DNA from: an uncultured Planctomycetia bacterium
Lineage (GTDB): Bacteria; Omnitrophota; Gorgyraeia; 1-14-0-20-64-10
Direction of reading: 5' to 3'
Length of the DNA stretch: 64,000 nt
Assembly (NCBI GenBank): GCA_964597545.1
Contig: CAZQXN010000005.1
Coordinates: forward strand, 12,647 to 76,646
The notes beneath the pieces were generated by a model. It ran no database searches. It was given only the letters and a program-made list of their open reading frames with translations, and had not been told where the DNA came from. Shown here in pieces: positions 1-64,000 of the stretch. Every line of letters starts with the position of its first letter. Position 1 is the first letter of the stretch. Made by a program: the position numbers and the translations under genes.

Positions 1-426
1 CTGAGAGCTTAAGCACACCTGGGGATAAAGCTCAAATTGCTCCAGCATCCAACCCAAGAGGCGGCTGTTTAAATCCGCCAACCGGGTTCCTGCCCTGAAA
101 AGGATCTCTCGAAAAGAGTCCATGGCAGTCTGAAAGCCCGGGGCCTTGCCATAAGCCTGCTCAAGCGTCTTACACATGCGCCTTGTCCACTCTGGAGTTG
201 ACTCCCGGGCGATGAGCACCTCGTTGATACGGGTCTCAAGTCCTGTGTGCTGAACTGGGACCGTGATCCAGGTTTCGCCGGTTTTAAGGCGCACGCGATT
301 CCTATTCTGAAAGTAATTCTTCCTGAACTGCACGTCATCTAAGAGGATGAGCTTATCGGCTATGCCCACCTTGTGGAAGAAGCCAAGCCACGGCGCAAAC
401 TCCGGTTGATGGATGGTGACACGCAT
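1..426 (-). CDS. WbqC-like family protein, N-terminal part (gene runs off the window start)
   Basis: Manual minus-strand translation from ATG at 426: MRVTIHQPEFAPWLGFFHKVGIADKLILLDDVQFRKNYFQNRNRVRLKTGETWITVPVQH... is open to position 1. It matches the WbqC family N-terminal signature (M-x-V-x-I-x-QP-x-F/Y-x-PW-x-GYF ... NRNRI-T). The track ORF 69..338 is a different frame. Confidence 0.7.
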   Translation of the reverse strand, partial: MRVTIHQPEFAPWLGFFHKVGIADKLILLDDVQFRKNYFQNRNRVRLKTGETWITVPVQHTGLETRINEVLIARESTPEWTRRMCKTLEQAYGKAPGFQTAMDSFREILFRAGTRLADLNSRLLGWMLEQFELYPQVCLSSQ

Positions 427-1092
427 CTATCTTTGCTCCCTCATAAGCATAAAGGCCTCTGCCGCGGCATGACCGCACTGCGCCCCACGCACCCTGGCCA
501 GCGCCTCCAACATCTCGGGACTTCTGGGATGCGGAAAGGGCCGGCTCTCCCGCTCATAAGCTTTCATGGCTGCGCACTTGGTCTTAAGCTCCTTGTCAAT
601 CTTCACGAAAAAATTGGGGGTAAAGGGTACTGCAGTACCCGGGAAAACCTGATGCGTTGCTGATGGGATTTCGTAAGCCAGAATGCGGCGCACAAAGGGA
701 ACCGCAGCTGGGCGCAGGGCGATGTTGGCGGCATGGGCAGTGATCCGGTGATCTTGATGCAGATCCCCTGCGTGCGGAATCAAGATCGATTCCGGCTGGA
801 TTTGGGCTGCCAACTTCTCAAGCAGATCCAAAAGCTCGGTAAAGCGCTCACCTAAGCGTTCATCCGGCAGGTCAAAGAAATGCAGCTGTTGGTACCCCAA
901 GCACTTCTGTGCGGCCCGGGCGCTTGCCTTTTCTGCCTCAATGGCGGCCGGGTCATAGGTGCGCTGATAGGCGCGATTGCACAGGACGGCGACGTGCACC
1001 TCCTCCCCCGCTGCCACATGCCGGGCAATGGCACCCCCGCAGCCCAATACCTCGTCATCCATGTGGGGCGCAACGACAAGAAGCTTAGCCAC
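427..1092 (-). CDS. LmbE/PIG-L family N-acetylglucosaminyl deacetylase
   Basis: 221 aa. HMDDEVLGCGG motif near the N-terminus and an HxxH block are typical of PIG-L/LmbE. GTG start at 1092. The stop overlaps the downstream WbqC-like start (ATGA-type). Confidence 0.8.
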   Translation of the reverse strand: MAKLLVVAPHMDDEVLGCGGAIARHVAAGEEVHVAVLCNRAYQRTYDPAAIEAEKASARAAQKCLGYQQLHFFDLPDERLGERFTELLDLLEKLAAQIQPESILIPHAGDLHQDHRITAHAANIALRPAAVPFVRRILAYEIPSATHQVFPGTAVPFTPNFFVKIDKELKTKCAAMKAYERESRPFPHPRSPEMLEALARVRGAQCGHAAAEAFMLMREQR

Positions 1093-1765
1093 TCAACTGC
1101 CCTCCTGAAGGTTGTAATGTGCGAAGTGTTCGGAATTCCTCCGGCGTGGCACTCAAGGCATGGTCCCGTATGACTTGCGACTCCTTGTTCAGGGTGAAAT
1201 GCTTCTCGATGTAACTTGCCCCGCGCGAGAGCGCGCAGAAACAAGCAGCCAGATCCCGGCAATGATCACTGTAGCCAAAAAAGCCAGACCGATCAAAGCG
1301 GTCCGGAAAATCAACAAGGTCGTAAGCTTCAGTGGGATATTTGGAGCGGCAGTAGATGTAGTACAGCTGCCCCTGAGGCGGGCCAAAGGGCCAGCCTGGT
1401 TTGTCCCACATGCCAAGGGAGACATAAGTTTCCTTCCCCTCAGCCAAGATGCGCTCACACAAGTCCGGCCGATCCACCACGGTGCGGGAAGCGATCTTGT
1501 ATCGGGATAGCTTCACCGCATGCGCCCAGGTGAGGGCCTCGTCACTGAAGATCGAAGCGAACAGCTCAATGCCGGCCTGGTCGCACCAGCGCTTAAGTGT
1601 CAGCACGCGCTCCTCATCCATGGCATTGATCTCACTTGGGCCCGAGCGCCAACCGAACTGAAACTTGGCCAGGTCAGCCCCGGCCTGCTTGGCCTGTTGG
1701 ATGAGCCGGCGGGCCAGCTCCCAATCTCCGTCGTGGTTTAAACCGATCTCAGCGACAAGCAGCAT
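1085..1765 (-). CDS. NeuB-family (N-acetylneuraminate synthase-like) TIM-barrel domain protein lacking the C-terminal SAF domain
   Basis: 226 aa. VAEIGLNHDGDWELARRLIQQAKQAGADLAKFQ, SDH and EKHFTL motifs of the NeuB/PseI/SpsE family are present. The ORF ends right after the barrel with no SAF/antifreeze-like domain. Confidence 0.65.
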   Translation of the reverse strand: MLLVAEIGLNHDGDWELARRLIQQAKQAGADLAKFQFGWRSGPSEINAMDEERVLTLKRWCDQAGIELFASIFSDEALTWAHAVKLSRYKIASRTVVDRPDLCERILAEGKETYVSLGMWDKPGWPFGPPQGQLYYIYCRSKYPTEAYDLVDFPDRFDRSGFFGYSDHCRDLAACFCALSRGASYIEKHFTLNKESQVIRDHALSATPEEFRTLRTLQPSGGQLSG

Positions 1766-2690
1766 CCAGGGGCTCCAGGCATTCTTTAAAGGACAACGTC
1801 ATCTCCACCATGCCGCGCCGCAGATGAAAATCCCCTGTGCTCTGCGTATTGAGGCCCGGAACGGCCGTCACCGCATGGCGGAATCCTGCGGATTTAAGCA
1901 GCTCAATGGTTTCATCGTCAAAATGGCGCGTTTCCCCCTCTGGGTAGGCAAACAACTCCACGGAAGTCCCAAGCTTTGACTCTAGGGCTGCCTTGGAGGC
2001 GCCAATCTGCCGCTCTTTTTCCCTGCGGGGCAGATGCGACAAGACCGGGTGATCCACGGTGTGTGCGCCGAATTGACAGAGGCCCGTTTCGCGCATCTGA
2101 TGGATCTGATTCCAGGTTAAGGTTTGATAATCCTCATAATCGTAGCGAGGCGAGACCTCGCAGCTGAGCTCCATCTCCTTGATGACGGATTCCGTCAGCC
2201 CTGGGGTGGTCTTCAAGAGCAGCTTGATGGTTTTTAAGGCCGCCTCTTTTTCCTCCAGACTGCGCAGAGAGAAAGTTCGATCCAGCGAAGGAAGGATCGC
2301 CTCCGGCAATTCGGTTTCGTTGATCAGGTACTCCAACTTGTCCACCCAAAAGATCCTGGGGGTGTCCACAAATCCGGAAGTCAGAAAGAATGTGGCTGGA
2401 ATTTTGTGCTCCACCAAAATGGGAAGGGCCACGGTGCAGTTGTTGGCAAAGCCGTCATCAAAGGTCACCGCGACCGCTCGAGGCGGAAGCACCCCGTTGG
2501 TTCGCACCTTGAGCAGCTCTGAGAGCCCCATTACGGTATATTCCTTTTCGAGCTGGGCCATTTGGCGCGCAAACACCTCTGCCGTCAAGTGCTTACGCGA
2601 GCAGTTGGCAATGCCGTGCTGCATGGGCTCACGCGTCACGCCATGATAGAGAAGAATGACAAAGGGGTTTTCAGTTGAGTGTTGCGACAT
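1749..2690 (-). CDS. polysaccharide deacetylase (NodB homology domain)
   Basis: 313 aa. TFDDGF...N and HTVDHP blocks characteristic of carbohydrate esterase family 4 / NodB. Confidence 0.75.
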   Translation of the reverse strand: MSQHSTENPFVILLYHGVTREPMQHGIANCSRKHLTAEVFARQMAQLEKEYTVMGLSELLKVRTNGVLPPRAVAVTFDDGFANNCTVALPILVEHKIPATFFLTSGFVDTPRIFWVDKLEYLINETELPEAILPSLDRTFSLRSLEEKEAALKTIKLLLKTTPGLTESVIKEMELSCEVSPRYDYEDYQTLTWNQIHQMRETGLCQFGAHTVDHPVLSHLPRREKERQIGASKAALESKLGTSVELFAYPEGETRHFDDETIELLKSAGFRHAVTAVPGLNTQSTGDFHLRRGMVEMTLSFKECLEPLDAACR

Positions 2691-3381
2691 GGTCTTGAAG
2701 CCTTTGATCGGCCAACGTGAGTTTGTCCTTTGGAATCATCGAATAGTACTGAGAGCGAGAAAGGTCCTGGGGCACTCCTGTCGACAGATGCCCCGTTTTA
2801 AGCTCCTCCAGCACCTCTTCCGCAAGTTCGGCCGCCAAGACCGTTGTATGAAAACGGATGTGGTGCGCGCGCATGTCGCGCGTAAGCCTCAATTTCTTCT
2901 GACGCAGGATCGGTCCGGTATCCAGACGTTGCGCCAGCCTGTGTAGGGTGGTGCCGATCTTCTCAAAATCACCCAGATAAAAAGCCCAGAGATTGGAATC
3001 CAGCCCCCTGTAGTTCGGAAGAATGCCGCGGTGAACGTTCATGCTTAAGCGGGGCAGCGAAAAGAGTTCCTCTGCCACTTTGCCGGTGCCAAAGGTCACT
3101 AAGAAATCCGGATTGAATGTCCGGATTTGCTTGAAGCAGCCCGCATCATTGACGCTGCGGACTTTGAACAGGTTGCTCTGCCCCGAAAAGTCTTTCGGCA
3201 GCGCCTCAAAAAAACGATCCTCATAACGATCGCGGAGTCGTTCGAAAGCCTCATCCTCCGCCTGGTGTGGGGGGTTCGGCGGATCCTGCTCCAAGACGAC
3301 CACCGTTGACGATCCTTGCGCCAGGCGGTTGGCGAAGTAGCGGTGATGCTTGGTGTCGGTGGTCAAGATCACTCCCTTCAT
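2671..3381 (-). CDS. formyltransferase-domain protein (Fmt/PurN-like), putative sugar N-formyltransferase
   Basis: 236 aa. NVHRGILPNYRGLDSNLWAF resembles the N(I/V)HPSLLPxYRG catalytic loop of the formyl_trans_N family. Confidence 0.55.
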   Translation of the reverse strand: MKGVILTTDTKHHRYFANRLAQGSSTVVVLEQDPPNPPHQAEDEAFERLRDRYEDRFFEALPKDFSGQSNLFKVRSVNDAGCFKQIRTFNPDFLVTFGTGKVAEELFSLPRLSMNVHRGILPNYRGLDSNLWAFYLGDFEKIGTTLHRLAQRLDTGPILRQKKLRLTRDMRAHHIRFHTTVLAAELAEEVLEELKTGHLSTGVPQDLSRSQYYSMIPKDKLTLADQRLQDHVATLN

Positions 3382-4790
3382 GGCGAACCCAATGGGGTTT
3401 TTACAGCAGGCAAGCGCTTAAGAAGGGCTTCTTCGGTTGGCTGCAAGTCCCCATGGCCTTTGATTCGCAAGCTTTCCTCCAGGGACATGACGATGTGGCC
3501 GGTCTTTTGGGTGGAGGCCATTTTTTGATCTTGAAGGACATCCCGCCAAAATACCTTGATGGCGCCGTTGTCTACATACAGCGCCTCACGCTCTAAGCGG
3601 ATCTTCTGGTGCATCCCGGGGTTTAAGGGCTCCAGTCCATGTGCGCGGTGGGCAAAATGGAGATCGTAATCTTCATAGACACTTAAAACTGTGTCTGCGT
3701 TGTAGAGCAGCAGGGTGTCCACGGCCTTTTGAATGTGTTCTGCCCGGCGCAGGGGGGTGTGGAGATTAAGTAAAATCAAGATGTCCGGGAAAAACTGATG
3801 CCCCTTTTCCAGAACCTCCACCGCGTGATGCAGGACTTGGGGGTACCATACCTGCGGGCCGGAAAGGTCCGCGGGGCGCAGCTCAGTTATGACCCCTTCC
3901 CTGCCTTGGCAATGCGCTACCACTTGGGGGTCATCGGCGCTGACCAAGATCTGCTCAAAAAGCTGAGCCTCTCGCGCGGCATCCAGCGTCCAATCGATTA
4001 ACGGTTTTCCGGCAAATTCCCTCAGAACGATGTTGGGCATCTCCGGGTAACTGTTCTTAGCCGGCACAACCGCTGTGATTCTGGGCTTCACCTTGCCCTG
4101 GCTTCGCTTGGCCAACTCTCGCTTGATTTGACTGCGCGCAGAAAGTATTCGGTTTTGATCGCGGGAAATCTCCTGAGAATGCTGCCGATAGTAAAACAGG
4201 GGTGTAGAGACATTGGCCACCGGATATCGGTGCATGACCTTAAGCCACAGCTCGTAACCATCCTGCACCTCTGTTGTTTCGCTGTAGCCGCCGATGCTTT
4301 TTAAGATCCGCCTTCGGACCATGGTGCAGGCGCCGTGGGCCGGCAGGTCCAGGAGCTTCGCCTCTTCCCCAATTCGCTTGCGCTGCTCGACTCCCAAGAC
4401 CTTGCCTGCTTCATCCACATACAGGTAGTTCGGATAAACCAGGGCCGCCTCGGGGTGGCGATCCAGATAGCTTGACAAGACCAGCAGTGCGTTTTCGTCC
4501 AAATAGTCATCGGCATCCAGGCGCATGAAGTATTCCCCCCGCGCCGCCTCCAGGGCGGTGTTGGCGCATGCCTGCAGGCCGCGCGATGCCGGATGCTTAA
4601 GAAGACGGATTTTCTGGGGGTACTTTGCAGCGAAGCGTGCCGCGATTGAAGCGGTCTCATCCTGCGACCCATCGTCCACCACCAGCAGTTCCCAGTCTGA
4701 AGCGGTTTGGGCCACTACGCTTGCAATGGCCTGCTCCAGGAACCTGCCGTACTGTTGGCAGGGGATGTAGATTGTGGCCTTAGGGCGCAT
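3378..4790 (-). CDS. bifunctional family-2 glycosyltransferase / acylneuraminate cytidylyltransferase-like protein
   Basis: N-terminal GT2 signature (ATIYIPCQQYGRFLEQAIASVVAQT...LLVVDDGSQDET...RLDADD). C-terminal CTP_transf_3-like block (ITAVVPAKNSYPEMPNIVLREFAGKPLIDWTLDAA...ILVSADD). Start re-placed at internal M (MRPKATIYIP, 4790), just after the upstream gene stop. Confidence 0.7.
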   Translation of the reverse strand: MRPKATIYIPCQQYGRFLEQAIASVVAQTASDWELLVVDDGSQDETASIAARFAAKYPQKIRLLKHPASRGLQACANTALEAARGEYFMRLDADDYLDENALLVLSSYLDRHPEAALVYPNYLYVDEAGKVLGVEQRKRIGEEAKLLDLPAHGACTMVRRRILKSIGGYSETTEVQDGYELWLKVMHRYPVANVSTPLFYYRQHSQEISRDQNRILSARSQIKRELAKRSQGKVKPRITAVVPAKNSYPEMPNIVLREFAGKPLIDWTLDAAREAQLFEQILVSADDPQVVAHCQGREGVITELRPADLSGPQVWYPQVLHHAVEVLEKGHQFFPDILILLNLHTPLRRAEHIQKAVDTLLLYNADTVLSVYEDYDLHFAHRAHGLEPLNPGMHQKIRLEREALYVDNGAIKVFWRDVLQDQKMASTQKTGHIVMSLEESLRIKGHGDLQPTEEALLKRLPAVKTPLGSP

Positions 4791-6165
4791 GAGATTCTCC
4801 TGGTTCTTGAAGGGCGCTGTAGAGCAGCTCTGCGTACCGCTTATAGCCGAGTTGATTAAAGTGGCCTGCGTCTCCATAGAGCCGCTCCTGACGTGCCAAG
4901 CGGCGCAGGTCCGGTGTCACATCGACATAAGCGAGATTGTGCGCGCGCGCAATCCCGGAAAGAACCTCCGAGAGAATGCGCTGGTGTTCGAAGCTTTCGG
5001 TCCATACTTGAGGATCATCGGTTCCGGTGATGCGCTCTGCCTGGTCTGCGTATACCGTGGCCGCCGAGGGAATGTAACTTAGGCAAACCTGAGCCGAGGT
5101 CTGACTGCGCAGATTCTCCAGAGTCTTCGCCACAATCGTCAGTCCCGCGGAAAGCTCATCGCCCGCCTGATCCTTTGCGAGCAGGTCCGGTGAGCAATGC
5201 TCCAGAGGGATGCGCACTTGGGAGGCGCCGATGGTCAGGTGGGCTTCGGGCATCGCCCCGGCTTGAGCCTGAAGGGTTCCCTGAAACAAAGAGGCAATCG
5301 CAGATCCTCTCACCCATCGATCGCTTCGGCGGTTAGGGCGTCCATAGTACTGCTCTAGGGGAGCTGCCCGATCCATGACGCCCTGCAGGCGCAGGGCATC
5401 GGAGAGGTCGTTGCCCTCATAGAAATTCACAATGACAAGATCCGGCCTCTTTTGGATGCCAAAACGCTCAAAGGCCAACAACCACTGTTGAGGTGCTCCG
5501 CCCAGGTCGCCTAAGCTGTATGCCGTTAAGCCGGCGAGTTTCGAAAAGTGCTCGGCGATCGTCACACGGCTCGTTCCGCGGGTGAAGGAATCCCCGAGAA
5601 AAAGAACATCCAGCGTGTTGTTTTTGCTGTAGAGTCCGGGGCGGTTCCTAAAGCCCGCCTCATCGACTACGACTGGAACCCAGCGATCTCCGGCATCCTC
5701 AGTGCGAAGGAGCCCCGAATGATTTGGGGTCAGCCTACGCAGATAGCCCTCTGTCACGTAGTTTCCGGTCAGCAGATCAAAGGGAAGCGCCGGCTGATTG
5801 GGTTTTCCAGATCGGGCTGCATTCAGCGCTGCAGCGCGGGCAATGATGCGGGGTGGCATCTCCTGAAGAAGCTGCTCAGGCACGAGGAAGGGGTTCTGCC
5901 AGAGTGCAAACTCCGCCAGAGCGATAGAGCCGGCACCCCCGACAAAGAGCGCCAAGGCGCGCTTGCTCCAAAGTTCGGATCGACTGATGAAGAGAAGGCC
6001 CCCCGCAAAAAGCGCCATCCCCGCAAGGAACGCAAAACGGGTTTTGGAATATATCCAGATGGCAGCATCCACGCTGGGTTCCAAGGCGAAGAGGGCGGTT
6101 GCGAGCAGCAGAATGATCCCCAGCCCCCGCGTTACTCCCTGCGCCACAAGGGTTGCTGATAACAT
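4780..6165 (-). CDS. membrane-anchored SGNH hydrolase, AlgX/AlgJ-like (putative glycan O-acyltransferase/esterase)
   Basis: N-terminal hydrophobic helices, then a GDS block (VLFLGDSFTRG), a GND block (NFYEGNDLSD) and a C-terminal DAGHFNQLGY resembling the DGHW(N) signature of AlgX/AlgJ. Start probably at the internal M at 6165. Confidence 0.55.
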   Translation of the reverse strand: MLSATLVAQGVTRGLGIILLLATALFALEPSVDAAIWIYSKTRFAFLAGMALFAGGLLFISRSELWSKRALALFVGGAGSIALAEFALWQNPFLVPEQLLQEMPPRIIARAAALNAARSGKPNQPALPFDLLTGNYVTEGYLRRLTPNHSGLLRTEDAGDRWVPVVVDEAGFRNRPGLYSKNNTLDVLFLGDSFTRGTSRVTIAEHFSKLAGLTAYSLGDLGGAPQQWLLAFERFGIQKRPDLVIVNFYEGNDLSDALRLQGVMDRAAPLEQYYGRPNRRSDRWVRGSAIASLFQGTLQAQAGAMPEAHLTIGASQVRIPLEHCSPDLLAKDQAGDELSAGLTIVAKTLENLRSQTSAQVCLSYIPSAATVYADQAERITGTDDPQVWTESFEHQRILSEVLSGIARAHNLAYVDVTPDLRRLARQERLYGDAGHFNQLGYKRYAELLYSALQEPGESHAP

Positions 6166-7937: not shown

Positions 7938-9142
7938 AACGCTGCCTCTTCATGGGCCAGCAGGGTACGCAGCTTCTGTGCGATCAAGCGGCCTGCCAAG
8001 CGGTGGCCCTGGGCATTCCAGTGTCCCTCGCCCAGCCGCGGACCAAAGCCGTGCAGAAAAACACCTCTGGATTGGGCCTCGCGGTGCAGCAGCGGTGCCA
8101 ACGCCAACAGGGCAATGTCATGCTGATCGGAAAATTCCTGAAGGCGCCGCTCCGGATAAAACAAATCACTTACCCCCATCTGTTCTTGAAATTGACGGCG
8201 AAGGTTGGAATCCGGATGGACCTGAATACCGTTTGATAAGGTGACCAGTAAGAAACGAGCCCCGCGAGCATGGACTTCGTCACGCATTTCAAGCAGTAGG
8301 CGCTCGGTAACGGTCCAGGCTTTTTTCCAGGTCGCATCTGCTGGGGGACGATAGACCAAGCTGTCCAAACCCGGCTCCTCCCCTGCTGTGGGGGGGAGGT
8401 TGGCTTGGGCCAAACCGCCCCGGGCATTCTGGAGCGCGTTCTTTGCGCGGCTGACAAGCTGCAGGCAGCGCACATGCTCCAGGGCTTGGTAATACAGCTG
8501 AAACGGCCGGCTCTGCCGAGTGCGCCAGGCTACATTCTTTCGGAATGAGTCGTCCAGATGCAGGCGATTGCCTTCAAGCACAAAGAAGGGGATCTGCTGG
8601 TTCTCTTCCAATTCGCGCACGTTGTTGCTGATGTCGTTTCCGGTGCAGAAGGCAAGAAGAACCACATCCGGATCATAGGCCCAGACGCGCCGGCGCAGGG
8701 TGATCAGTTCCTGAGCGGTGCCATAGCCGGAAACGCCGAAATTCATGATCTCCACAGGGCGGTCTTGGAAACCAGGGGATGCCGCCAACCCCTCTTTTGC
8801 GACCCACCAAAAGGTGCGCTCCAAGGGCATCTCCAGGGCAGCGGTATAGGAGTCGCCCAAGACGGCAATGCGTAAAGCCGATGGCGCTTTGCTCAAGTTG
8901 TGCTCCTGGTCTCTAAGCCCCTGAGAGTTGATTTGAATGAAGACTGGCTCCTCAATCTGCTCGCCCTTAAGCCACCCTTGAGCGTTGGGCCGATAAGCAT
9001 AACCCCGCTGTTCGTCAAAAACTCGAAAGGTTGGGTATCCAAAGTCAATCCCCGCCAGCCGCAATCCCGCCTCCAGGAGCAGGAACGCTGCAGTCAAGCC
9101 TCCAAACCCTAAGAAAACCCTAAGTACGCCTGAACGCTTCAT
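7934..9142 (-). CDS. SGNH hydrolase, AlgJ/AlgX-like, N-terminal signal anchor
   Basis: 402 aa. IAVLGDSYT (block I), FGVSGYG, TGNDISNN (block III) and C-terminal GEGHWNAQGH (DGHWN-like). Overlaps the upstream gene by 4 nt. Confidence 0.55.
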   Translation of the reverse strand: MKRSGVLRVFLGFGGLTAAFLLLEAGLRLAGIDFGYPTFRVFDEQRGYAYRPNAQGWLKGEQIEEPVFIQINSQGLRDQEHNLSKAPSALRIAVLGDSYTAALEMPLERTFWWVAKEGLAASPGFQDRPVEIMNFGVSGYGTAQELITLRRRVWAYDPDVVLLAFCTGNDISNNVRELEENQQIPFFVLEGNRLHLDDSFRKNVAWRTRQSRPFQLYYQALEHVRCLQLVSRAKNALQNARGGLAQANLPPTAGEEPGLDSLVYRPPADATWKKAWTVTERLLLEMRDEVHARGARFLLVTLSNGIQVHPDSNLRRQFQEQMGVSDLFYPERRLQEFSDQHDIALLALAPLLHREAQSRGVFLHGFGPRLGEGHWNAQGHRLAGRLIAQKLRTLLAHEEAAL

Positions 9143-38327: not shown

Positions 38328-38405
38328 CAGACCCCCTCCGGCCTCGACGCCTCAACAACAACAGCGGCGAGGAGAGGATCTTCAAGCACCAGTAAAAGAA
38401 ACGCA

Positions 38406-43349: not shown

Positions 43350-43438
43350 CCGTTGACCTCCTGCCTGATCACTCTAAGTTCTTCCGGGTGAAATAAGCGG
43401 GGGCATCATCTCCGACCCAACGGGATCCAACCTGAAAC

Positions 43439-58160: not shown

Positions 58161-59777
58161 TTAAGCCATCACTTTCTTCTGGGAGGCCAGCGACCACCCT
58201 GACGGAATGTAGAGGCTGCGCTGCTTGACCGGGACCCTGCGCTGCAGGTGGGGATTGAGCCGGTTGACAAACCACTCCAAAGGAAAAAGGGGCAAGAGCG
58301 AGATAACCAAGTTGGTCGCGAGGGCAAAGGAGAGCCGAAACAGGTGGAGCCACTCGCCGAGGAACAGATACCAATGGGAACGCAGTTTAAACCACCCCGG
58401 CCCATGCTTTCGGGTGATGACCCCCCAGAGGACCCGGGGCCTAAAGTTGGAAAGGAGATTGTATCGGATAACATCCCGCGTCAATTCCCACTCCGAGGTC
58501 GTCTCCGGAACATAGGGCAGCGGCCTGCGCCGGGACAACGGCAGCGCCATTTCAGAAAGAGAGGAGGTGAAATTTTCCCAATGGCCCTGCTTGCACATTC
58601 TCCGGGAACCTTGGACATCACGGTAGAAGGGGGTACCCGGATAAGGGATTAGGTTGTTGTACTTGATGAAGGTGGGCGAGAGGGAATTCGCAAAGCGGAC
58701 AGTCTCAACCCGATCGGCATGCGTCTCGGTCGGAAAACCAAAGATCATAAAGATGGCCACATCCATCCCATGCTTGCGCGCCACCGCCACCGCATCGCGG
58801 TGCTGCTGGAGCGTCTCCCCCTTATGAACGATGTTGGCCAGGCGCTCCACACCCGTCTCCACACCAAAACCAACCGAATCAAAACCGGCCTCCTTGAGCA
58901 GCGGAACCATCTCCGGGTAGAAATTATCCGCCCGGGTCTGCAGGGAAAAAGAACACTTTTCTTTAAGCCCAGAGGCCTTGAGCGCTGCGCAAATCTCATG
59001 AACGCGAGACTTCTTAAAGCATAGGTTGTCGTCCAAAAAGAAGAGGGACTTGACGCCGAAGCGATTGACCAGGGTGTCCAGCTCACTCATGATGGTTTGG
59101 ATCGACTTGTAGCGGTAGGTAGAGCCGGTCATCATCCGCTGGCTGCAGTAGCTGCACTTGTAGGGACAGCCGCGGGAGGTGACGATAAAGCCCCAGTCAT
59201 AGGTGGTGCGGTGCTTGGCCTTCTCGAGCATATTGACAAACATGTCATAGGGAAAGGGGGGCAAACTGTCTAAGTCTTTGATGAGCGGCTCTTCTGGGGT
59301 ATGAACGATTCTGTCTTCATGTCGGAAGGAAAGCCCTCGGATCGAAGAAAAATCGGTTTCCCCTTGCCGAATGGCGTCGTAAAGCCTCAAGAGAGACCGC
59401 TCCCCTTCCCCGCGCACCACAAAATCGATTGTCGGAAAGGAAAGCATCTCATCCGGCAAAGCGGTGGCGTGGAATCCGCCGACGATCACAGTGGAGTCAG
59501 GGTATTTGGCCTTCAAGAGTGCGGCCAGCTCAAAGGTCCGGGCGGCCTGCGCAGTCAAAACCGTGATGCCAAACACATAGGGCTTAGGCAAACCCTCAAG
59601 CGCATCATCAAGGTTTTGCCAATTGAGCTTGACCACTTCCTCATCGATGATGCGCACCGCATGGCCATGGGCTTTGAGTTGTGCGGCAAGGCAGCCGATC
59701 GACATTGGCAGCGATAACGGCGCAAAACGGCTGATGGAACCACCATAGCCGGCATTGCAGGGATTAATGATGAGCAT
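58161..59777 (-). CDS. cobalamin-dependent (class B) radical SAM enzyme, probable methyltransferase
   Basis: N-terminal B12-binding domain. Canonical SRGCPYKCSYC (CX3CX2C). Confidence 0.8.
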   Translation of the reverse strand: MLIINPCNAGYGGSISRFAPLSLPMSIGCLAAQLKAHGHAVRIIDEEVVKLNWQNLDDALEGLPKPYVFGITVLTAQAARTFELAALLKAKYPDSTVIVGGFHATALPDEMLSFPTIDFVVRGEGERSLLRLYDAIRQGETDFSSIRGLSFRHEDRIVHTPEEPLIKDLDSLPPFPYDMFVNMLEKAKHRTTYDWGFIVTSRGCPYKCSYCSQRMMTGSTYRYKSIQTIMSELDTLVNRFGVKSLFFLDDNLCFKKSRVHEICAALKASGLKEKCSFSLQTRADNFYPEMVPLLKEAGFDSVGFGVETGVERLANIVHKGETLQQHRDAVAVARKHGMDVAIFMIFGFPTETHADRVETVRFANSLSPTFIKYNNLIPYPGTPFYRDVQGSRRMCKQGHWENFTSSLSEMALPLSRRRPLPYVPETTSEWELTRDVIRYNLLSNFRPRVLWGVITRKHGPGWFKLRSHWYLFLGEWLHLFRLSFALATNLVISLLPLFPLEWFVNRLNPHLQRRVPVKQRSLYIPSGWSLASQKKVMA

Positions 59778-59786: not shown

Positions 59787-60599
59787 TCACTTTCGGGGGG
59801 CACCCCGACGCAGAAACACTTCCCGCAGCAGCTGCAGCAGGTATACTGCGCCCCACTGAAAGATCTTGAGCTTCCTATCCCCGCCGATGCGGGCCGGTTC
59901 ATCCGCTGGAATCTCTCCCCAACGAACACCCCACTTAAGGGATCGAAAGGACATCAAGGGAATCCAATCCACCCGCGTCCGAAAGAGCCTCTCTAGACCC
60001 TCAAACTCCTCGGGTCTGTCCAAGCCCAGCTGCATCGGCAGCTCCTTTCGGTGAGCGCGAAGCATGACCATCGGATCGGTCATGCGGGCAGAACCCCTGG
60101 GGCGTAAAAACCAATTGCTTAAGGTGCGATACATCCAGTTGCCAAAGCGGGTCAGGCTGTCGTCATCATCTGAGATGGCATCCCCCAAATAGCGGGAGGC
60201 AATCACCAGTTCCAGATTCTCCCCCTCTATCTTGTCGAGAAGCTGAGGGATCACCTCGGGGATGGAGTTGCCGTCCGGGGTGAAATAGACCACAACCTCA
60301 CCGCGGATCAACGGCCAAACCTCCTGATAGGCCGACCGGAACCCCGCCCGCTTCTGAACATACACCTGGTATCCCTGCTCACGAGCCCACTCCACGGTGC
60401 CGTCGGTTGAGCCGCCATCAACCACCAAGATTTGGTCCACCCAGCTGCGGCTGACTCTCGGCATGATGTGTCGCATCCCATCAATCTCGTTGAGGGTCAT
60501 GACCACCAGTGTCGCCCTCAGGGTTCTCTGCTTGGGCTTGCCTTGAGCGGCAGCGACAGCTTGGGGTTGCTTTGGCGCAGCGAGGGTTTCTTTGCTCAT
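59787..60599 (-). CDS. GT2-family glycosyltransferase (polyprenyl-phosphate sugar synthase / DPM1-like)
   Basis: VVMTLNEIDGMRHIMPRV...ILVVDGGSTDGT. Confidence 0.75.
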   Translation of the reverse strand: MSKETLAAPKQPQAVAAAQGKPKQRTLRATLVVMTLNEIDGMRHIMPRVSRSWVDQILVVDGGSTDGTVEWAREQGYQVYVQKRAGFRSAYQEVWPLIRGEVVVYFTPDGNSIPEVIPQLLDKIEGENLELVIASRYLGDAISDDDDSLTRFGNWMYRTLSNWFLRPRGSARMTDPMVMLRAHRKELPMQLGLDRPEEFEGLERLFRTRVDWIPLMSFRSLKWGVRWGEIPADEPARIGGDRKLKIFQWGAVYLLQLLREVFLRRGAPRK

Positions 60600-61651
60600 G
60601 GGGTCGCAGTGCTGGTTGAAAAGACGCGTTCAGCCTCAGCCACAGAAAGAGGCGTGGGGGGCTGGGTTTCGGCGTCAAAGAAGATGATGCGTGAACCTGA
60701 GCTTTCAAACTCAAGGGGCACGTGCAACAAGTTCCCTAAGGCTGCGCGAACTGCGGGTTTGTTTTCAGGGCGAACAAAGAGCAGCAGGAATCCCCCGCCA
60801 CCGGCGCCCAAGAGCTTGCCTCCCAAGGCCCCCGCAACACAGGCGCGCTCATAAATCTGGTCGATCATGGCATTGGAGATGCGCGAGGTAATGCTGCGCT
60901 TGAGTTTCCAGCCCTCATCCAGCAGGCGGCCGAAGTCATCCAGGGATCCTTCCCCCTGAAGGATTCTGATCGCCTCACCCACCATCTGGTGCAGCGATCG
61001 GAGGGTCTCGGCTTTACTGTGGGTGGCCTGAATCTGCTCGGCTGCAATCTCAGAGGCAGTGCGAGACAGCCCCGTATAGATAAGCATCAGGTGATCCTGG
61101 AGCGCGGCCAGGCGCTCCCGGCCCAAAAGAATGGGCGAAACCTGAATGGCCCCATCCTTTGAAAAATCGACCCGGTTAAATCCGCCAAAAGCCGCCATCA
61201 CCTGGTCCTGAGAACCAACGCTTTCCTTGAGCCGTTCCTGTTCAACATGGATGGCCTCGGTGGCCAGCTTCATCTTGCTGGGCATCACCCCCTGAAGCCC
61301 GTAAAGGGCATGGAGCAAACCTACAGTGAAGGAGGAGCTGGAGCCCAAACCGGTTCTCGCCGGCAAGTCTCCATCGTGGTGAAGTTCAATCCCGGAGGGG
61401 ACATTCAGGTGGCGCAGCACCTCGCGAACCGAAGGGTGCTTAATCTCCTCGATCTTGCGTACCAGCTCAATCTGGGACCAAACAATCCGGTAGGCATGGT
61501 TAAAGAAGGGCGGCAGCCATCGGCAGGTGATATAGCAGTAGCGCCGGATGGTGGTTGCCAGGGTTGAGCCCCCATGTTCACGAAACCAAGTTGGATAATC
61601 GGTTCCTCCGCCAAAAAAGGAGATTCGAAAGGGCGTTCGGGAGATGATCAT
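60596..61651 (-). CDS. GHMP-family sugar kinase (HddA-like heptose-7-phosphate kinase type)
   Basis: MIISRTPFRISFFGGGTD N-terminus and PARTGLGSSSSF ATP-binding motif. Confidence 0.8.
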   Translation of the reverse strand: MIISRTPFRISFFGGGTDYPTWFREHGGSTLATTIRRYCYITCRWLPPFFNHAYRIVWSQIELVRKIEEIKHPSVREVLRHLNVPSGIELHHDGDLPARTGLGSSSSFTVGLLHALYGLQGVMPSKMKLATEAIHVEQERLKESVGSQDQVMAAFGGFNRVDFSKDGAIQVSPILLGRERLAALQDHLMLIYTGLSRTASEIAAEQIQATHSKAETLRSLHQMVGEAIRILQGEGSLDDFGRLLDEGWKLKRSITSRISNAMIDQIYERACVAGALGGKLLGAGGGGFLLLFVRPENKPAVRAALGNLLHVPLEFESSGSRIIFFDAETQPPTPLSVAEAERVFSTSTATP

Positions 61652-63237
61652 GGGGTCTGACCCCTGCTGTTGAGGGGTCTGACCCCTACTTCGACTCCGG
61701 TGTGTTCACCGATTTTTTCCTTTAGGATTTCTCGTTTTAAGCGATGAGCCGCCATCTGGCGAATGTGCGCCACAGTCTCAGCTCCAAAGGTCTGGCGCAC
61801 CCGCTCCAAATATCGCGGGGAGTTGTAGTATGCCTGAAAAGCTCGATCCCGGAATTCCAGGACTTCGGCTGCGGTCAGATGCTTGGTGGGCAAAGGCAAA
61901 CAATCGGCCGAATGCTGTGAATAGCCGCTCCACTTCTCGGGCAACACCCAGCCCTCTTGCACCGCGGTTTGGTAGAGGTCAGACCCCGGATAGGCCATCG
62001 CAGAATAAAAGTTGGCAAATTCGCAGTTGAGATCCAATGCAAGGTCCAGGGTCTCCTGCATGGTCCTCAGATCATCCTCAGGCAGGCCAAAGATGTAGTT
62101 GCCGATCACATGAATTCCGGCTGCCCAGGTTTTCCCTAAGGTCTCTTTGATGTCTCCCTGATCAAATCCCTTTTGAACATCGTCGCGAACCTCGGTGTTG
62201 GCCGCTTCGATTCCATAGGCCAACCAATTGATCCCTGCGGCCTTGAGCTTAGGGAACATGTCATCTCGAACGGTATCCACGCGCGCATAGGCCCAGATGT
62301 TCAGGTCCAAACCTCGTTCAATGATTCCGTCGCAAATCTCGGATACATGCTTCGGGTTGAGCACAAAGAGCTCATCGGCAAATTTGACGTTCCGCACCCC
62401 GTATTGACTAACCAGGGTATCCAGCTCAGCCAGAACCGCCTGAGGGCTCCACAATCGGTAGGTGTTCACCCCCGCCTTGAAACCGGCGGCCTTCTCCCCT
62501 TCCTTGAAGGGAGCTTGAATGCAGCAAAAGCTGCAGCGAAAAGGGCAGCCCAGGGTGGTATAGATCGCCGCATACGGTTGACGCTCAAGTCCATCCAGGC
62601 AGTGCCAGTTGTGGGCCCTATAGCGTTCCATCGGCAGCAAATCCCAGGCAACGCCGGGCATCTCCCGATCCAAATCCATGACCAATGGGGCCGGGGGATT
62701 TGTCCGGATCACGCCCCTCTGCCAAAAGAGCAAACCGGCAACATCGGTTAAACCCGAGCGACTGCCGGTCCGAAGCGCCTCAACCAGCTGCGCCAGGGTG
62801 ATGGGTCCTTCTCCGCTGCAAACAAAATCGGCAGCCTCTTCCCGAAGGGTTTGCTCAGGCAAAGCGGCAACATGGCCCCCCACCAAGATCACCCTTTGCT
62901 CAGGTGAGGTTTGCTTGACGGCGCGGCAAACCGCCCCGGCAGCAGGCATGTTCTGCGTAGAGGCAGAGGGCTGATGCCCGTAGACCGCAACCGCAACCAG
63001 GAGGGGATTGAGTGCTCGAAGGCGTTCGGCGGCTTGATCGGCCGTCAACCCCTCCGCTGCAGCATCCAGAACCGCCACCCGGAACCCCTTAAGCCTCAAG
63101 TACGTTGCCATCAGTCCCGCCCAAACCGGCGGCTCAATGGCTGAAAGCTTGGATCCCAAAGCCTGGTAGGCCTGGGCCTGGTTGGCCGGATTGACCAGCA
63201 CCACGTCAATGGGCTTAGGCAAAGTTGGCATAGGCAT
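61648..63237 (-). CDS. cobalamin-dependent (class B) radical SAM enzyme
   Basis: B12-binding domain (VVLVNPANQ...FRVAVLDAAAEG), then canonical LGCPFRCSFC. Confidence 0.8.
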   Translation of the reverse strand: MPMPTLPKPIDVVLVNPANQAQAYQALGSKLSAIEPPVWAGLMATYLRLKGFRVAVLDAAAEGLTADQAAERLRALNPLLVAVAVYGHQPSASTQNMPAAGAVCRAVKQTSPEQRVILVGGHVAALPEQTLREEAADFVCSGEGPITLAQLVEALRTGSRSGLTDVAGLLFWQRGVIRTNPPAPLVMDLDREMPGVAWDLLPMERYRAHNWHCLDGLERQPYAAIYTTLGCPFRCSFCCIQAPFKEGEKAAGFKAGVNTYRLWSPQAVLAELDTLVSQYGVRNVKFADELFVLNPKHVSEICDGIIERGLDLNIWAYARVDTVRDDMFPKLKAAGINWLAYGIEAANTEVRDDVQKGFDQGDIKETLGKTWAAGIHVIGNYIFGLPEDDLRTMQETLDLALDLNCEFANFYSAMAYPGSDLYQTAVQEGWVLPEKWSGYSQHSADCLPLPTKHLTAAEVLEFRDRAFQAYYNSPRYLERVRQTFGAETVAHIRQMAAHRLKREILKEKIGEHTGVEVGVRPLNSRGQTP

Positions 63238-64000
63238 CCCTTCGAATGACGTGGTAACCCTTAATCAACTCCGTAATGCCTGCGCGCAAGCTCACCTGCG
63301 GTTTAAATCCTGTTTTTTCAACCCGTTCGTTGCTGACAATGTAATCCCGCTGATCCGGATCAGCCCCCACCTCAGCCTCGGTAAAGTAAAAATCAGGCAG
63401 CTGCTCTCGAATCACCTCGCACAGCTCTCGCTTGGAGAGGTTGGCATCGGATAATCCTACGTTGTAGGGCTGGCCCTTCATGCTGTCAAAGCGATCGATG
63501 GCATGCACGAAAACGCGGGCCACATCCCGAACGTGAATGTAATTTCTCTTGAAGTGACTCTGAAAAAGAACGATGAAGCGGTCGGTGGCCGCCCGATAAA
63601 CAAAGTCATTGACCAACAGATCCAGCCGCATCCTGGGAGATATTCCAAAGGCGGTTGCCAGCCGAAAGGTCACGCTGTTGCCGGCATCGAGAATCACCTT
63701 TTCGGCCTCGACCTTGAGCCGGCCGTAGGTCGAAATGGGTCGCAGCGGCGTCTCCTCCGTGCAATGGGTTCCCTTCTCCCCGACTCCATAACCGCTGTTG
63801 GTGGTCGGAAAGAGGATCCGATGCCCAGGGGAACGCAGGCGAACAAGGCTCTTGATCGCGTCGAGGTTGACCGCTTTCGCCTCCATGGGATCCCGCTCGC
63901 AGATCGGCGCTCCAGTGAGACAGGCCAACGGGATGATCACATCGACCTGCTTGAGCGCTTCCGAAACCAAGCGTTCATCCCGGACGTCCCCCCGCCATAC
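63215..64000 (-). CDS. NAD-dependent epimerase/dehydratase (SDR-extended), C-terminal part; gene continues beyond the window end
   Basis: In-frame upstream translation to the window edge reads YGGGDVRDER-L-VSEALKQVDVIIPLA (the GDVRD...D-V-I-HLAA region of extended SDRs). The Rossmann N-terminus is therefore outside the window. Confidence 0.7.
   Translation of the reverse strand, partial: VWRGDVRDERLVSEALKQVDVIIPLACLTGAPICERDPMEAKAVNLDAIKSLVRLRSPGHRILFPTTNSGYGVGEKGTHCTEETPLRPISTYGRLKVEAEKVILDAGNSVTFRLATAFGISPRMRLDLLVNDFVYRAATDRFIVLFQSHFKRNYIHVRDVARVFVHAIDRFDSMKGQPYNVGLSDANLSKRELCEVIREQLPDFYFTEAEVGADPDQRDYIVSNERVEKTGFKPQVSLRAGITELIKGYHVIRRDAYANFA

Follow-up and report, generated by a model that had tools for sequence, protein, structure and literature searches.

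In complete genomes of the Omnitrophota, almost all genes of each replichore reportedly lie on one strand (10.1101/2023.11.21.568195). Giant genes of at least 21 kb have been reported in this phylum to be transcribed on single mRNAs, and an abundance of surface-glycan genes has been described for its hypervariable loci. A precedent for the size of the locus described here is found in the O-chain clusters of the Pelagibacterales, which range from 10 to 90 kb and from 8 to 101 genes (PMC11898729). The DNA that we analysed, a stretch of 64 kb called the window below, is probably an internal slice of a larger, strain-variable surface-glycan region, built as a chain of modules and owing its layout to the strand bias of its lineage together with operon packing.

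The whole window is tiled by long minus-strand open reading frames, and both of its ends fall within minus-strand genes. It contains 55 genes, 53 complete and two truncated by the window ends (Table 1), no credible gene being found on the plus strand. Twenty-two of the gene models are identical to proteins already recorded for an 85,349-bp NCBI contig, which come from independent gene calls, and codon-usage log-odds prefer the called minus frame in every orphan gene. The four longest plus-strand ORFs of the window gave no Pfam match. The sole plus ORF preferred by a crude greedy caller (22596-23051) was rejected, as it is missing from the recorded NCBI proteins; ORF 43641-44756 was discarded as a shadow ORF overlapping g39, and the longest-ORF start of g18 (22422) was not retained, since the domain would then begin at residue 207. 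No tRNA was found in the 64 kb, no Rfam family matched, and a Pfam search of all window genes returned no transposase or integrase domain. The initial annotation had placed every credible gene (about 55) on the minus strand and had seen no insertion sequence, tRNA or opposite-strand gene. Both statements hold. Composition is uniform (GC 0.55-0.60, GC3 0.59-0.72), with a step in GC3 skew at 24 kb (+0.065 versus 0, p = 0.002). The coding strand is rich in G and T, as expected of a leading strand.

Table 1. Genes, intergenic gaps and candidate signals of the window, in minus-strand order
Feature	Assignment	Position	Strand	Remarks
g55	SDR epimerase/dehydratase	63215..64000	-	Pfam Epimerase, profile positions 58-240 only; 5' end outside window; 87% aa identity to 311-aa gene of sister contig
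g54	B12-binding radical SAM enzyme	61648..63237	-	Pfam B12-binding + Radical_SAM; NCBIfam all below equivalog cut-offs
g53	GHMP kinase, weakly HddA-like	60596..61651	-	Pfam GHMP_kinases_N/C; NCBIfam HddA 138 bits, below cut-off; exact NCBI protein
g52	GT2 glycosyltransferase, weakly like AglJ / polyprenyl-phosphate hexose transferase	59787..60599	-	
g51	B12-binding radical SAM enzyme	58161..59777	-	
g50	783-aa membrane glycosyltransferase, GT-C fold	55805..58156	-	11 predicted TM helices; no Pfam match
g49	PseB, UDP-GlcNAc 4,6-dehydratase (inverting)	54783..55790	-	TIGR03589 517 bits, cut-off 408
g48	PseC aminotransferase	53578..54786	-	TIGR03588 445 bits, cut-off 424; no counterpart at this position of sister contig
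g47	B12-binding radical SAM enzyme	51860..53575	-	
g46	NeuB/PseI-family nonulosonate synthase	50789..51838	-	Pfam NeuB + SAF; NCBIfam NeuB 315 bits, PseI 278 bits, both under cut-off; exact NCBI protein
g45	formyltransferase-like protein	50215..50775	-	start 50775 or 50733
g44	PseG, UDP-sugar hydrolase	49148..50218	-	TIGR03590 160 bits, cut-off 154
g43	GFO/IDH/MocA oxidoreductase	48122..49135	-	
g42	cytidylyltransferase (CTP_transf_3) + class-III aminotransferase fusion	46077..48122	-	such fusions also in relatives
g41	504-aa membrane protein, 10 TM helices (predicted)	44560..46074	-	no Pfam match; exact NCBI protein, start 46074
g39	GT4 glycosyltransferase	43439..44560	-	exact NCBI protein
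gap	intergenic, 89 nt	43350-43438		no significant fold
g38	707-aa soluble protein	41226..43349	-	codon usage supports frame; exact NCBI protein; no relative in Pfam or PDB
g37	ABC exporter, fused TMD-NBD, HepA/MsbA/PglK-like	39440..41233	-	
g36	protein weakly like SGNH/GDSL hydrolases	38406..39443	-	
gap	intergenic, 78 nt	38328-38405		
g35	RmlD-like sugar reductase	37356..38327	-	
g34	GT2 glycosyltransferase	36409..37359	-	
g33	534-aa protein	34818..36422	-	
g32	GFO/IDH/MocA oxidoreductase	33799..34821	-	
g31	SAM methyltransferase	32837..33802	-	
g30	PEP mutase + nucleotidyltransferase fusion	31146..32840	-	Pfam PEP_mutase + NTP_transf_3; TIGR02320 314 bits, cut-off 320; EDKx5NS (Ppm) motif at residue 110; exact NCBI protein
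g29	SIS-domain isomerase, weakly GmhA-like	30500..31126	-	
g28	fructose-6-phosphate aldolase / transaldolase family	29766..30503	-	
g27	SAM methyltransferase	28900..29769	-	
g26	GT1-family (Glycos_transf_1) glycosyltransferase	27734..28897	-	
g25	HpcH/HpaI-type aldolase	26937..27737	-	
g24	HAD phosphatase	26298..26933	-	
g23	short-chain dehydrogenase	25550..26308	-	
g22	short-chain dehydrogenase	24777..25541	-	
g21	KdsB-like CMP-ulosonate cytidylyltransferase	23905..24774	-	NF003952 200 bits, cut-off 193
site	promoter-like, TAGACA-17-TATACT (10/12)	23999-23971		just upstream of 123-nt gap
gap	intergenic, 123 nt	23782-23904		upstream edge of window-specific g20-g19 cassette
g20	SAM methyltransferase	23038..23781	-	two-gene cassette with g19, missing from sister contig and L004
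g19	374-aa protein	21921..23045	-	same cassette as g20
g18	D-2-hydroxyacid dehydrogenase	20944..21912	-	
g17	membrane-anchored protein, DUF4330 + TIG domains	19659..20957	-	
g16	PMT_2-type GT-C membrane glycosyltransferase	18256..19662	-	8 TM helices; exact NCBI protein
g15	membrane-anchored protein, DUF4330 + TIG domains	17225..18259	-	
g14	135-aa protein, 2 TM helices	16828..17235	-	135-aa gene also called at corresponding sister-contig position
g13	transglutaminase-like protein	16088..16819	-	3' tail carries ~96-nt insertion
insertion	hairpin-rich, in frame, in g13 (alignment)	16103..16215	-	fold z = -2.6; unique in window; low codon score; missing from sister contig
g12	AsnB, asparagine-synthase-type amidotransferase	14167..16101	-	TIGR01536 460 bits, cut-off 267; Met-Cys start at 16101
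gap	intergenic, 119 nt	14048-14166		candidate internal promoter/operator
g11	ABC exporter, HepA/MsbA/PglK-like	12179..14047	-	
g10	655-aa protein	10215..12182	-	92.5% aa identity to sister contig
g9	SAM methyltransferase	9139..10218	-	
g8	SGNH/GDSL-like protein	7934..9142	-	
g7	NeuB-family synthase + SAF domain + cytidylyltransferase fusion	6165..7937	-	
g6	SGNH/GDSL-like protein, 4 N-terminal TM helices	4780..6165	-	start 6165 or 6174
g5	GT2 glycosyltransferase + cytidylyltransferase fusion	3378..4790	-	sister-contig homologue 470 aa, same length as model
g4	formyltransferase	2671..3381	-	
g3	polysaccharide deacetylase	1749..2690	-	
g2	short NeuB-like protein, barrel only, without SAF domain	1085..1765	-	
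g1	PIG-L-family deacetylase	427..1092	-	
g0	WbqC-family protein	1..426	-	3' end outside window; sister contig has 238-aa WbqC, then PseG-like gene

Pfam and NCBIfam assignments bear out the glycan-biosynthesis content claimed initially, with PseB, PseC, PseG, KdsB and AsnB scoring above curated cut-offs. As far as family assignment goes, the first three represent the pseudaminic-acid pathway. In total, the window encodes three NeuB paralogues, five cytidylyltransferase domains, three enzymes of the B12-radical-SAM type and two ABC exporters resembling MsbA/PglK. Five modules can be proposed. M1 (64.0-46.1 kb) would combine a tailored pseudaminic-acid pathway, in which g45 occupies the slot held in relatives by a PseH-type acetyltransferase, with the B12-radical-SAM enzymes and a GT-C transferase. 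This last protein, g50, lacks a WWDxG motif and has an invariant E42/D44 pair within the motif ALPENDLWWM; the top PDB folds for its AF2 model (pLDDT 84.5) are AglB, STT3, PglB, DPY19 and ArnT, at TM-scores of 0.3-0.39. M2 (46.1-38.4 kb) would comprise the 10-TM protein, a GT4 enzyme, the g38 protein, an ABC exporter and an SGNH-like protein, and M3 (38.3-23.9 kb) the PEP-mutase/nucleotidyltransferase with genes for a putative Kdo-like ulosonate or heptose. To M4 (23.8-14.2 kb) would belong the inserted methyltransferase cassette, the 2-hydroxyacid dehydrogenase, AsnB and a PMT_2-type GT-C with TIG-domain membrane proteins on both sides. The PMT_2 annotation of g16 is that of the homologous gene product of the sister contig (see below; 61% identity), the window protein itself having no Pfam match at E<=0.001. 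M5 (14.0-0 kb) would hold the second ABC exporter, the NeuB-cytidylyltransferase and GT2-cytidylyltransferase fusions, and de-N-acetylase/formyltransferase tailoring.

How these products might cooperate, and on which acceptor, is a matter of conjecture guided by their families. Unusual nucleotide-activated sugars (CMP-nonulosonates, a CMP-Kdo-like sugar and a nucleotidyl-phosphonate) would be made in the cytoplasm and built by the GT2/GT4 enzymes onto a polyprenyl-phosphate carrier. The MsbA/PglK-like ABC proteins would flip or export the product, and the GT-C enzymes would transfer it outside the membrane onto a glycan or onto surface proteins; g15 and g17, with their TIG domains, are candidate acceptors. 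The window yielded neither an initiating phosphoglycosyltransferase nor Wzx/Wzy, nor a classical oligosaccharyltransferase motif.

The closest relatives of the window are Omnitrophota/PVC metagenome-assembled genomes (MAGs), half of the best matches carrying a Planctomycetia label; those of g30, at 55-62% identity, are Omnitrophota or 'Planctomycetia' MAGs. The chromosome appears Omnitrophota-like (PVC group), an assignment resting on transfer-prone glycan genes, as the window holds no phylogenetic marker gene. One Omnitrophota relative, L004, whose GC content of 0.58 is like that of the window, has 13 window genes in common (34-78% identity, 12 of the 13 at 54% or more), all co-directional. 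In a further relative, L013, 17 of 17 genes lie on one strand, including AddA/UvrD, LeuRS, ComEC, DnaK and DnaJ. Since these are unrelated housekeeping functions, co-directionality alone does not imply co-transcription. A run of 55 genes on one strand has a probability of ~1e-14 if neighbour-strand retention is 0.55, and of 0.06-0.58 if it is 0.95-0.99; such a run is therefore exceptional only in a genome without strong strand bias. Given the bias reported for the Omnitrophota and the co-directional housekeeping genes of L013, the array is probably not the unusual one that it was first taken for. Its one-strand layout would have two reasons: the lineage, to judge from relatives, places almost all replichore genes on the leading strand, and glycan loci are probably assembled from compact operons anyway.

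A sister contig, covered at record positions 25,675-47,057 and 72,172-97,188, gives a closer view of the region. All of its genes in both stretches, called independently, lie on one strand, and the two stretches of co-directional sugar genes span about 71-81 kb; a single opposite-strand gene (DAO) lies upstream, with further sugar genes beyond it. The outer blocks are nearly identical in amino acid sequence (g1-g5, 96-98%; g9-g11, 91-92.5%; g51-g53, 90-97%), whereas identity falls to 66% for g12, 61% for g16, 41% for g15 and 39% for g17. Two cassettes, g44-g46 with g48 and g19-g20, are missing from the sister contig. The nine central genes that were looked up (24-45 kb) are singletons at 90% identity among ~15 billion proteins. 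M1 is found as a unit in other metagenomes, and M3 is rearranged in L004. Near-identical outer blocks, a divergent centre and presence or absence of cassettes are, at the level of sequence comparison, the pattern of a modular hypervariable glycan island.

The packing is operon-like, as had been proposed. Of 54 junctions, 34 are overlaps (4 nt, ATGA or GTGA, at 19; 1 nt at three; 8-23 nt at twelve), 16 are gaps of 0-21 nt and four are gaps of 78-123 nt; the prevalence of overlaps and small gaps, and the stop-start overlaps seen initially at several junctions, are thus real. Non-coding DNA amounts to ~536 nt (0.8% of the window), and a Shine-Dalgarno-like motif precedes 27 of the 54 starts, versus 8.9 +/- 2.7 for randomly chosen positions. 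Initially, just two of the longer stretches without coding sequence had been recognized. One, the 123-nt gap, stands. The other, at 16.1-16.2 kb, is in frame within the g13 ORF (16088-16819), with the AsnB start at 16101, and there are actually four intergenic gaps, two of them at module boundaries. The 119-nt gap, which adjoins the end of a high-identity block common to the window and the sister contig, has two conserved islands, TGTAAC-N16-GTTACA and TTGACA-N17-GATGTT, the latter directly before an ATG without a Shine-Dalgarno motif, and both are retained while their surroundings diverge. The initial annotation looked to internal terminators or promoters as signs of independent units; terminator-like sites are at chance level, but these islands are candidates for a promoter/operator. 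Promoter-like sites, too, are no commoner than in shuffled sequence. With terminator-like sites at chance level and a terminator-like fold missing from all four gaps, transcription units can be counted by inference only. Most likely, expression of the region would be divided among about five long polycistronic units, bounded by the four gaps; translation is plausibly coupled at the overlapping junctions within them. Strict stoichiometric coupling, also claimed, is not a consequence of overlapping stop and start codons.

A few long transcripts across the region are possible. A true super-operon, as originally suggested, would go further, with one or two promoters, giant mRNAs and coupling throughout 64 kb (possibly at least 71 kb on the sister contig). 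The tight packing of 50 of the 54 junctions favours it, as do terminator-like sites that do not exceed chance and do not occur in the four gaps, and the reported giant-gene mRNAs suggest that the phylum is able to make transcripts of such length. We nevertheless consider it improbable: the region is modular, its blocks are independent and differently ordered in relatives, two cassettes are missing from the sister contig, and four gaps of 78-123 nt interrupt the array, one keeping its TTGACA and inverted-repeat islands by an ATG without Shine-Dalgarno and another, the 123-nt gap, bordering a recently inserted cassette with a 10/12 promoter-like site just upstream; the co-directional housekeeping genes of L013, moreover, make strand uninformative on co-transcription.

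Slightly less credible still is the arrival of the glycan genes as one block, on a horizontally acquired island or an integrated mobile element. The looked-up central genes, none of which has a relative at 90% identity or more, the mosaic identity to the sister contig with its cassette differences, the GC3-skew step and the reported glycan richness of Omnitrophota hypervariable loci would all suit such an event; yet GC and GC3 are uniform, and neither integrase nor transposase genes, tRNAs or a direct-repeat boundary turned up in the 64 kb. The outer blocks are also glycan genes, conserved at 90-98%, which fits piecemeal replacement by homologous recombination and not the insertion of one element. 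Phages, plasmids and Borg-like elements typically bear long one-strand gene arrays, and the window resembles them in its single-strand layout and high coding density only. All its annotated genes belong to sugar/glycan metabolism, with no structural, replication or partition genes in the window, and the sister contig and housekeeping-flanked relatives are chromosomal in character, so that an extrachromosomal origin seems very unlikely indeed.

The preferred reading, an internal slice of a strain-variable, modular surface-glycan region, has parallels in known systems: in O-antigen islands, in capsule islands and in 'glycotype' islands likewise, the centre has diverged or been replaced between close relatives while the outer blocks have stayed near-identical.

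On the minus strand lie 55 of the 55 genes called, contiguous and tiling the window from end to end; 53 are complete in an ORF map with refined starts, and since the window ends on both sides inside minus-strand genes, the array must be longer than 64 kb. Twenty-two gene models are letter-for-letter identical to proteins recorded from one 85,349-bp NCBI contig, and such identity settled five of the starts. Neither a 43-mer searched in JGI metagenome contigs nor look-ups of g30, g53 and g50 in a positional index of proteins gave an exact match. Two further ORFs were rejected as shadow ORFs: one on the plus strand, the choice of a crude greedy caller, which is missing among the recorded NCBI proteins, and one on the minus strand. 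The four longest plus-strand ORFs had no match in Pfam. The frames of the orphan genes were judged by codon-usage log-odds, because GC content by codon position fails to separate sense from antisense frames here; the called minus frame was the best in all of them (0.13-0.26 bits per codon, against at most 0.04 for the other frames). No tRNA and no Rfam family was found within the 64 kb, nor a transposase or integrase domain in any of the 55 genes by domain search. The initial annotation, which placed all of about 55 credible genes on the minus strand without insertion sequences, tRNAs or opposite-strand genes, is thus upheld on these points, as is its statement that most junctions are overlaps or short gaps: the 54 junctions comprise 34 overlaps (19 of 4 nt, 3 of 1 nt and 12 of 8-23 nt), 16 gaps of 0-21 nt and four longer gaps of 78, 89, 119 and 123 nt. 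A Shine-Dalgarno-like motif precedes 27 of 54 starts, versus 8.9 +/- 2.7 at random positions. Of the two longer non-coding stretches that had been taken for the only ones, the 123-nt gap is real; the other, at 16.1-16.2 kb, is inside the ORF of g13, and the remaining three gaps had been missed. Between the body of g13 and the start of the AsnB gene (g12, beginning Met-Cys) there is a hairpin-rich insertion of about 96 nt (hairpins CCTCGC-GAAA-GCGAGG and TTCCCGC-TTCC-GCGGGAA), which is in frame and lengthens g13 by about 40 residues. It has poor codon usage, is present in a single copy in the window and is missing from the sister contig, a 127-kb JGI contig of a close relative; possible identities are a small mobile repeat and a regulatory hairpin.

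Coordinates of the features discussed (in the window unless a locus of a relative is named)
Feature	Position	Strand	Remark
M1	64.0-46.1 kb	minus	module
M2	46.1-38.4 kb	minus	module
M3	38.3-23.9 kb	minus	module
M4	23.8-14.2 kb	minus	module
M5	14.0-0 kb	minus	module
89-nt gap	43350-43438
78-nt gap	38328-38405
123-nt gap	23782-23904		behind it, the g20-g19 cassette
119-nt gap	14048-14166		between AsnB and ABC exporter genes
120-nt gap, L084	5869-5988		counterpart in the sister contig
g50	55805-58156	minus	GT-C-like membrane protein
g42	46077-48122	minus	cytidylyltransferase-aminotransferase fusion
g30	31146-32840	minus	PEP mutase (Ppm) fusion
g18	20944-21912	minus	D-2-hydroxyacid dehydrogenase
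Insertion	16103-16215	minus	hairpin-rich
g12 start	16101	minus	AsnB
g41, g20, g19, g16, g11 starts	46074, 23781, 23045, 19662, 14047	minus	settled by NCBI protein identity
Shadow ORF	22596-23051	plus	rejected
Shadow ORF	43641-44756	minus	rejected
Opposite-strand block, L005	13932-21635		opens with a large serine recombinase gene
Dehydratase with intein-like insert	L081 1-1566 / L086 10001-11893		on the sister contig, upstream of the window's high end by about 8 kb

The array had also been called unusual, and this is not supported in view of the probable lineage. The window contains no phylogenetic marker gene, so that its assignment to Omnitrophota is indirect; for g30, the closest genomic relatives come from Candidatus Omnitrophota and 'uncultured Planctomycetia' MAGs (55-62% identity). 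One Omnitrophota MAG (L004), with the same GC content as the window, shares 13 of its genes at 34-78% identity (12 of the 13 at 54% or more), all co-directional. In complete Omnitrophota genomes, unlike in most bacteria, nearly every gene of each replichore is on one strand (West-Roberts et al., bioRxiv 10.1101/2023.11.21.568195). The window resembles this arrangement in its unbroken one-strand run and its G/T-rich coding strand (GC skew +0.044, AT skew -0.085, the skew being weak in 0-24 kb), which matches leading-strand composition, as expected. A third likeness, a one-strand run across unrelated genes, is seen in relatives rather than in the window's own genome: in locus L013, a Ppm fusion lies amid genes for AddA/UvrD, LeuRS, ComEC, DnaK and DnaJ, with 17 of 17 genes co-directional. 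In the locus of another relative, L005, the one-strand run stops only at an opposite-strand block, probably an integrated element. A literature search for V. archaeovorus together with 'leading strand' returned no match. A run of 55 genes has a probability of about 1e-14 if neighbours share a strand with p = 0.55, and of 0.06-0.58 if p = 0.95-0.99. A one-strand run is therefore to be expected in a strongly biased genome and is weak evidence on co-transcription.

According to Pfam and NCBIfam, the gene content is almost purely glycan biosynthesis, and on this ground a phage, plasmid or Borg was rejected. PseB (g49), PseC (g48), PseG (g44), a KdsB-subfamily cytidylyltransferase (g21) and AsnB (g12) score above curated NCBIfam cut-offs. 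Matches at the family level include three NeuB-type synthases (g46, g7, g2), five CTP_transf_3 domains (g42, g21, g7 and g5, plus PseF-like parts), three B12-binding radical-SAM enzymes, two formyltransferases, five methyltransferases, GT2 and GT1/GT4 glycosyltransferases, SGNH-like proteins and two fused TMD-NBD ABC exporters of the HepA/MsbA/PglK type. Transmembrane prediction identified three orphan proteins as polytopic membrane proteins, and a PDB sequence search with g38, g10 and g33 found no relatives.

The clustering of PseB, PseC, PseG, a NeuB/PseI-family synthase and a cytidylyltransferase recalls the flagellin glycosylation islands of the Campylobacter/Helicobacter type. The synthase, g46, stays below both relevant cut-offs (278 bits versus 340 for PseI, 315 bits versus 400 for NeuB), and the cytidylyltransferase part of g42 has a CTP_transf_3 domain only. 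The window departs from these islands in several respects, however. It has no PseH acetyltransferase, there being no GNAT gene in the window, and the formyltransferase-like g45 occupies the slot where relatives have an acetyltransferase; its cytidylyltransferase forms one protein with a class-III aminotransferase; genes for B12-radical-SAM enzymes and a GT-C transferase lie among the others; and no Maf or flagellar genes are seen in it. The aminotransferase part of g42 resembles glutamate-1-semialdehyde aminomutase, the other part being a CMP-sugar synthetase domain. The same fusion occurs in three loci of relatives (L081, L088, L090); it adjoins the gene of a NeuB-type synthase and is a candidate for a role in nonulosonate tailoring.

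The 783-residue g50 has 11 transmembrane helices, and in its family E42 and D44 (E..D) are invariant in the first external loop. Its AlphaFold (AF2) model, a confident one (pLDDT 84.5), is that of a GT-C-fold protein, for which Foldseek gave AglB, STT3, PglB, DPY19 and ArnT as best PDB matches. Related proteins (P0002-P0017) are conserved GT-C-fold membrane proteins of about 770 aa, without a Pfam model and with the signature 'ALPENDLWWM'; in every fetched locus, the gene lies between a GT2 or radical-SAM gene and PseB. A second candidate, g16, itself matched no Pfam model; the homologous protein on the sister contig carries a PMT_2 annotation, and the neighbours of g16 on both sides encode membrane-anchored DUF4330/TIG proteins. 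A PMT_2-type GT-C beside TIG-domain membrane proteins, a g50 fold nearest AglB, STT3 and PglB, and ABC exporters whose matches to the PglK/MsbA families stay below curated cut-offs are all reminiscent of Pgl and archaeal Agl-type protein glycosylation. The window differs from such systems in that the TM-scores of g50 are only 0.3-0.39 and the WWDxG motif is not present in it. The acceptor of this putative glycosylation system may equally be a polysaccharide or a lipid.

The g30 protein, a PEP mutase with the EDKx5NS motif followed by a C-terminal nucleotidyltransferase and encoded amid glycan genes, is akin to the Ppm-nucleotidyltransferase fusions described for cell-surface phosphonates (Rice et al. 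2019, PMC6697681). The difference is that neither a phosphonopyruvate decarboxylase nor an AEP transaminase was found in the window, where no TPP-enzyme domain occurs in any of the 55 genes. A D-2-hydroxyacid dehydrogenase (g18) and a KdsB-like cytidylyltransferase accompany the Ppm fusion in the window and in two relatives (L004 and L010); in L004, the dehydrogenase is encoded two genes downstream of Ppm. Their presence beside Ppm, without a decarboxylase, hints at a putative Ppd-independent branch, perhaps via phosphonolactate by analogy with VlpB (PMC8942020).

The sister contig is 83-92% identical to the window at the nucleotide level in shared blocks, and its independent gene calls are on one strand throughout record positions 25.7-47.1 kb and 72.2-97.2 kb. 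It has one opposite-strand gene (DAO), directly upstream of an intein-containing sugar dehydratase and preceded by further sugar genes. This dehydratase is a 630-aa sugar 4,6-dehydratase/epimerase split by a LAGLIDADG-type intein-like insert, an architecture that is widespread in bacteria and archaea (at least 8000 matches, many with PF14528). A partial gene at the downstream side of the sister contig is PseG/GT28-like by homologue search; a metagenome scan with it as query gave one irrelevant locus. Judged from these two versions, window and sister contig, the region is strain-variable. Amino acid identity is high in the outer blocks (g1-g5, 96-98%; g9-g11, 91-92.5%; g51-g53, 90-97%) and falls to 39-78% in the centre (g12, 66%; g16, 61%; g15, 41%; g17, 39%). 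The PseC, PseI, formyltransferase and PseG genes (g48 and g46-g44) are missing at the corresponding position of the sister contig, the g20-g19 cassette is missing from both the sister contig and L004, and nine central genes, when looked up among about 15 billion proteins, proved to be singletons at 90% identity. As a whole, M1 is found again in metagenomes from groundwater and in others, with an acetyltransferase replacing g45, and M3 has a rearranged order in L004. On the coding strand, GC3 skew is +0.065 in 23.9-64 kb versus about 0 in 0-23.8 kb (p = 0.002); the step sits at the 123-nt gap, and skew is most negative, and GC3 highest, in the inserted g20-g19 cassette. The gene set was not inherited as one unit, modules being rearranged, replaced or missing in L004, L010, the sister contig, L088 and L090. 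The glycan super-operon first described is supported only in part: the almost pure glycan content stands; the single unit is not supported, given these rearrangements and the four longer gaps.

How the array is transcribed can be approached from its regulatory candidates. Consensus promoter and terminator scans of the window gave counts equal to the shuffled expectation, and the four longer gaps show no terminator fold and insignificant folding, so that a reading in terms of a few long transcripts stands unrefuted by these scans. The gap between the AsnB and ABC exporter genes is equal in length in the window and the sister contig, and two islands in it are conserved amid diverged sequence. 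Both precede the ABC exporter gene: an inverted repeat, TGTAAC-N16-GTTACA, around CCTTATATT, and a block of 45 nt, identical at 42 of 45 positions, that contains TTGACA-N17-GATGTT. This last element comes directly before an ATG without a Shine-Dalgarno motif, its TTGACA at a distance of about 40 nt. Together, the islands may be an operator and a promoter for a short-leader mRNA. In the 20-40 kb segment, the promoter-like site that scores highest on the minus strand (10 matches out of 12) is found directly upstream of the 123-nt gap. Together, islands and site hint at internal regulation and favour expression as about five polycistronic units, M1 to M5. Within the units, translation is probably coupled; the strict stoichiometric coupling once proposed is not implied by the data.

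We consider it likely that the window belongs to a large, modular, strain-variable surface-glycan region whose one-strand layout results from lineage-wide strand bias and ordinary operon packing. A far bolder reading, which we regard as improbable, takes the array for one or two giant mRNAs (64 kb; in the sister contig possibly at least 71 kb and about 60 genes) encoding an undescribed envelope-glycosylation system of ultra-small Omnitrophota, in which three GT-C enzymes attach several nonulosonic acids and a Ppd-independent phosphonate to TIG-domain surface proteins; if true, it would place the array among the longest bacterial operons. For the modular region, family knowledge suggests the following mechanism. 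Several nucleotide-activated unusual sugars would be made in the cytoplasm: a CMP-pseudaminic-acid derivative, possibly both N-formylated and, through the radical-SAM enzymes, C-methylated; two more NeuB-dependent ulosonates; a KdsB-activated sugar, helped by SIS, FSA, HpcH-aldolase and HAD enzymes; and a nucleotidyl-phosphonate, in whose synthesis no decarboxylase would take part and which might arise by way of phosphonolactate formed by g18 (PMC8942020). GT2/GT4 enzymes would then assemble the sugars on a lipid carrier, the ABC proteins would export the product, and, outside the membrane, GT-C enzymes would pass it on to a glycan or a protein.

A striking single-strand array can thus be due to the lineage and need not point to a super-operon, and scans for co-directional runs should allow for that. 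Omnitrophota are ultra-small, possibly host-dependent bacteria, in which surface sugars are likely to control attachment and phage or host recognition. Nothing among these results is categorically new; what the window adds is a record of a very large surface-glycan region, modular and variable between strains, in a phylum of which little is known, and it offers enzymology three candidates, the GT-C family without a Pfam model, the cytidylyltransferase-aminotransferase fusion and the Ppm fusion without a decarboxylase.

Among known systems, the replacement flexible genomic islands, or glycotypes, for O-chain and capsule in Alteromonas and Pelagibacterales (PMC4898812, PMC11898729) share with the window a stretch of glycan genes tens of kb long, outer blocks that are nearly identical between close relatives around a centre that is divergent or replaced, and the lack of mobility genes. 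In Pelagibacterales, O-chain clusters are 10-90 kb long and contain 8-101 genes (PMC11898729), and polysaccharide genes are reported to be abundant in Omnitrophota hypervariable loci. The window differs in that its conserved outer blocks are themselves glycan genes, so that the true island edges lie beyond it, and in its unusual wealth of ulosonic-acid modules (five cytidylyltransferase domains beside three paralogues of NeuB), its Ppm fusion, its three B12-radical-SAM enzymes and its several GT-C enzymes. As far as sequence comparison goes, mosaic identity and independently moving modules are the anatomy of a hypervariable glycan island, and the size of the window is ordinary for that class.
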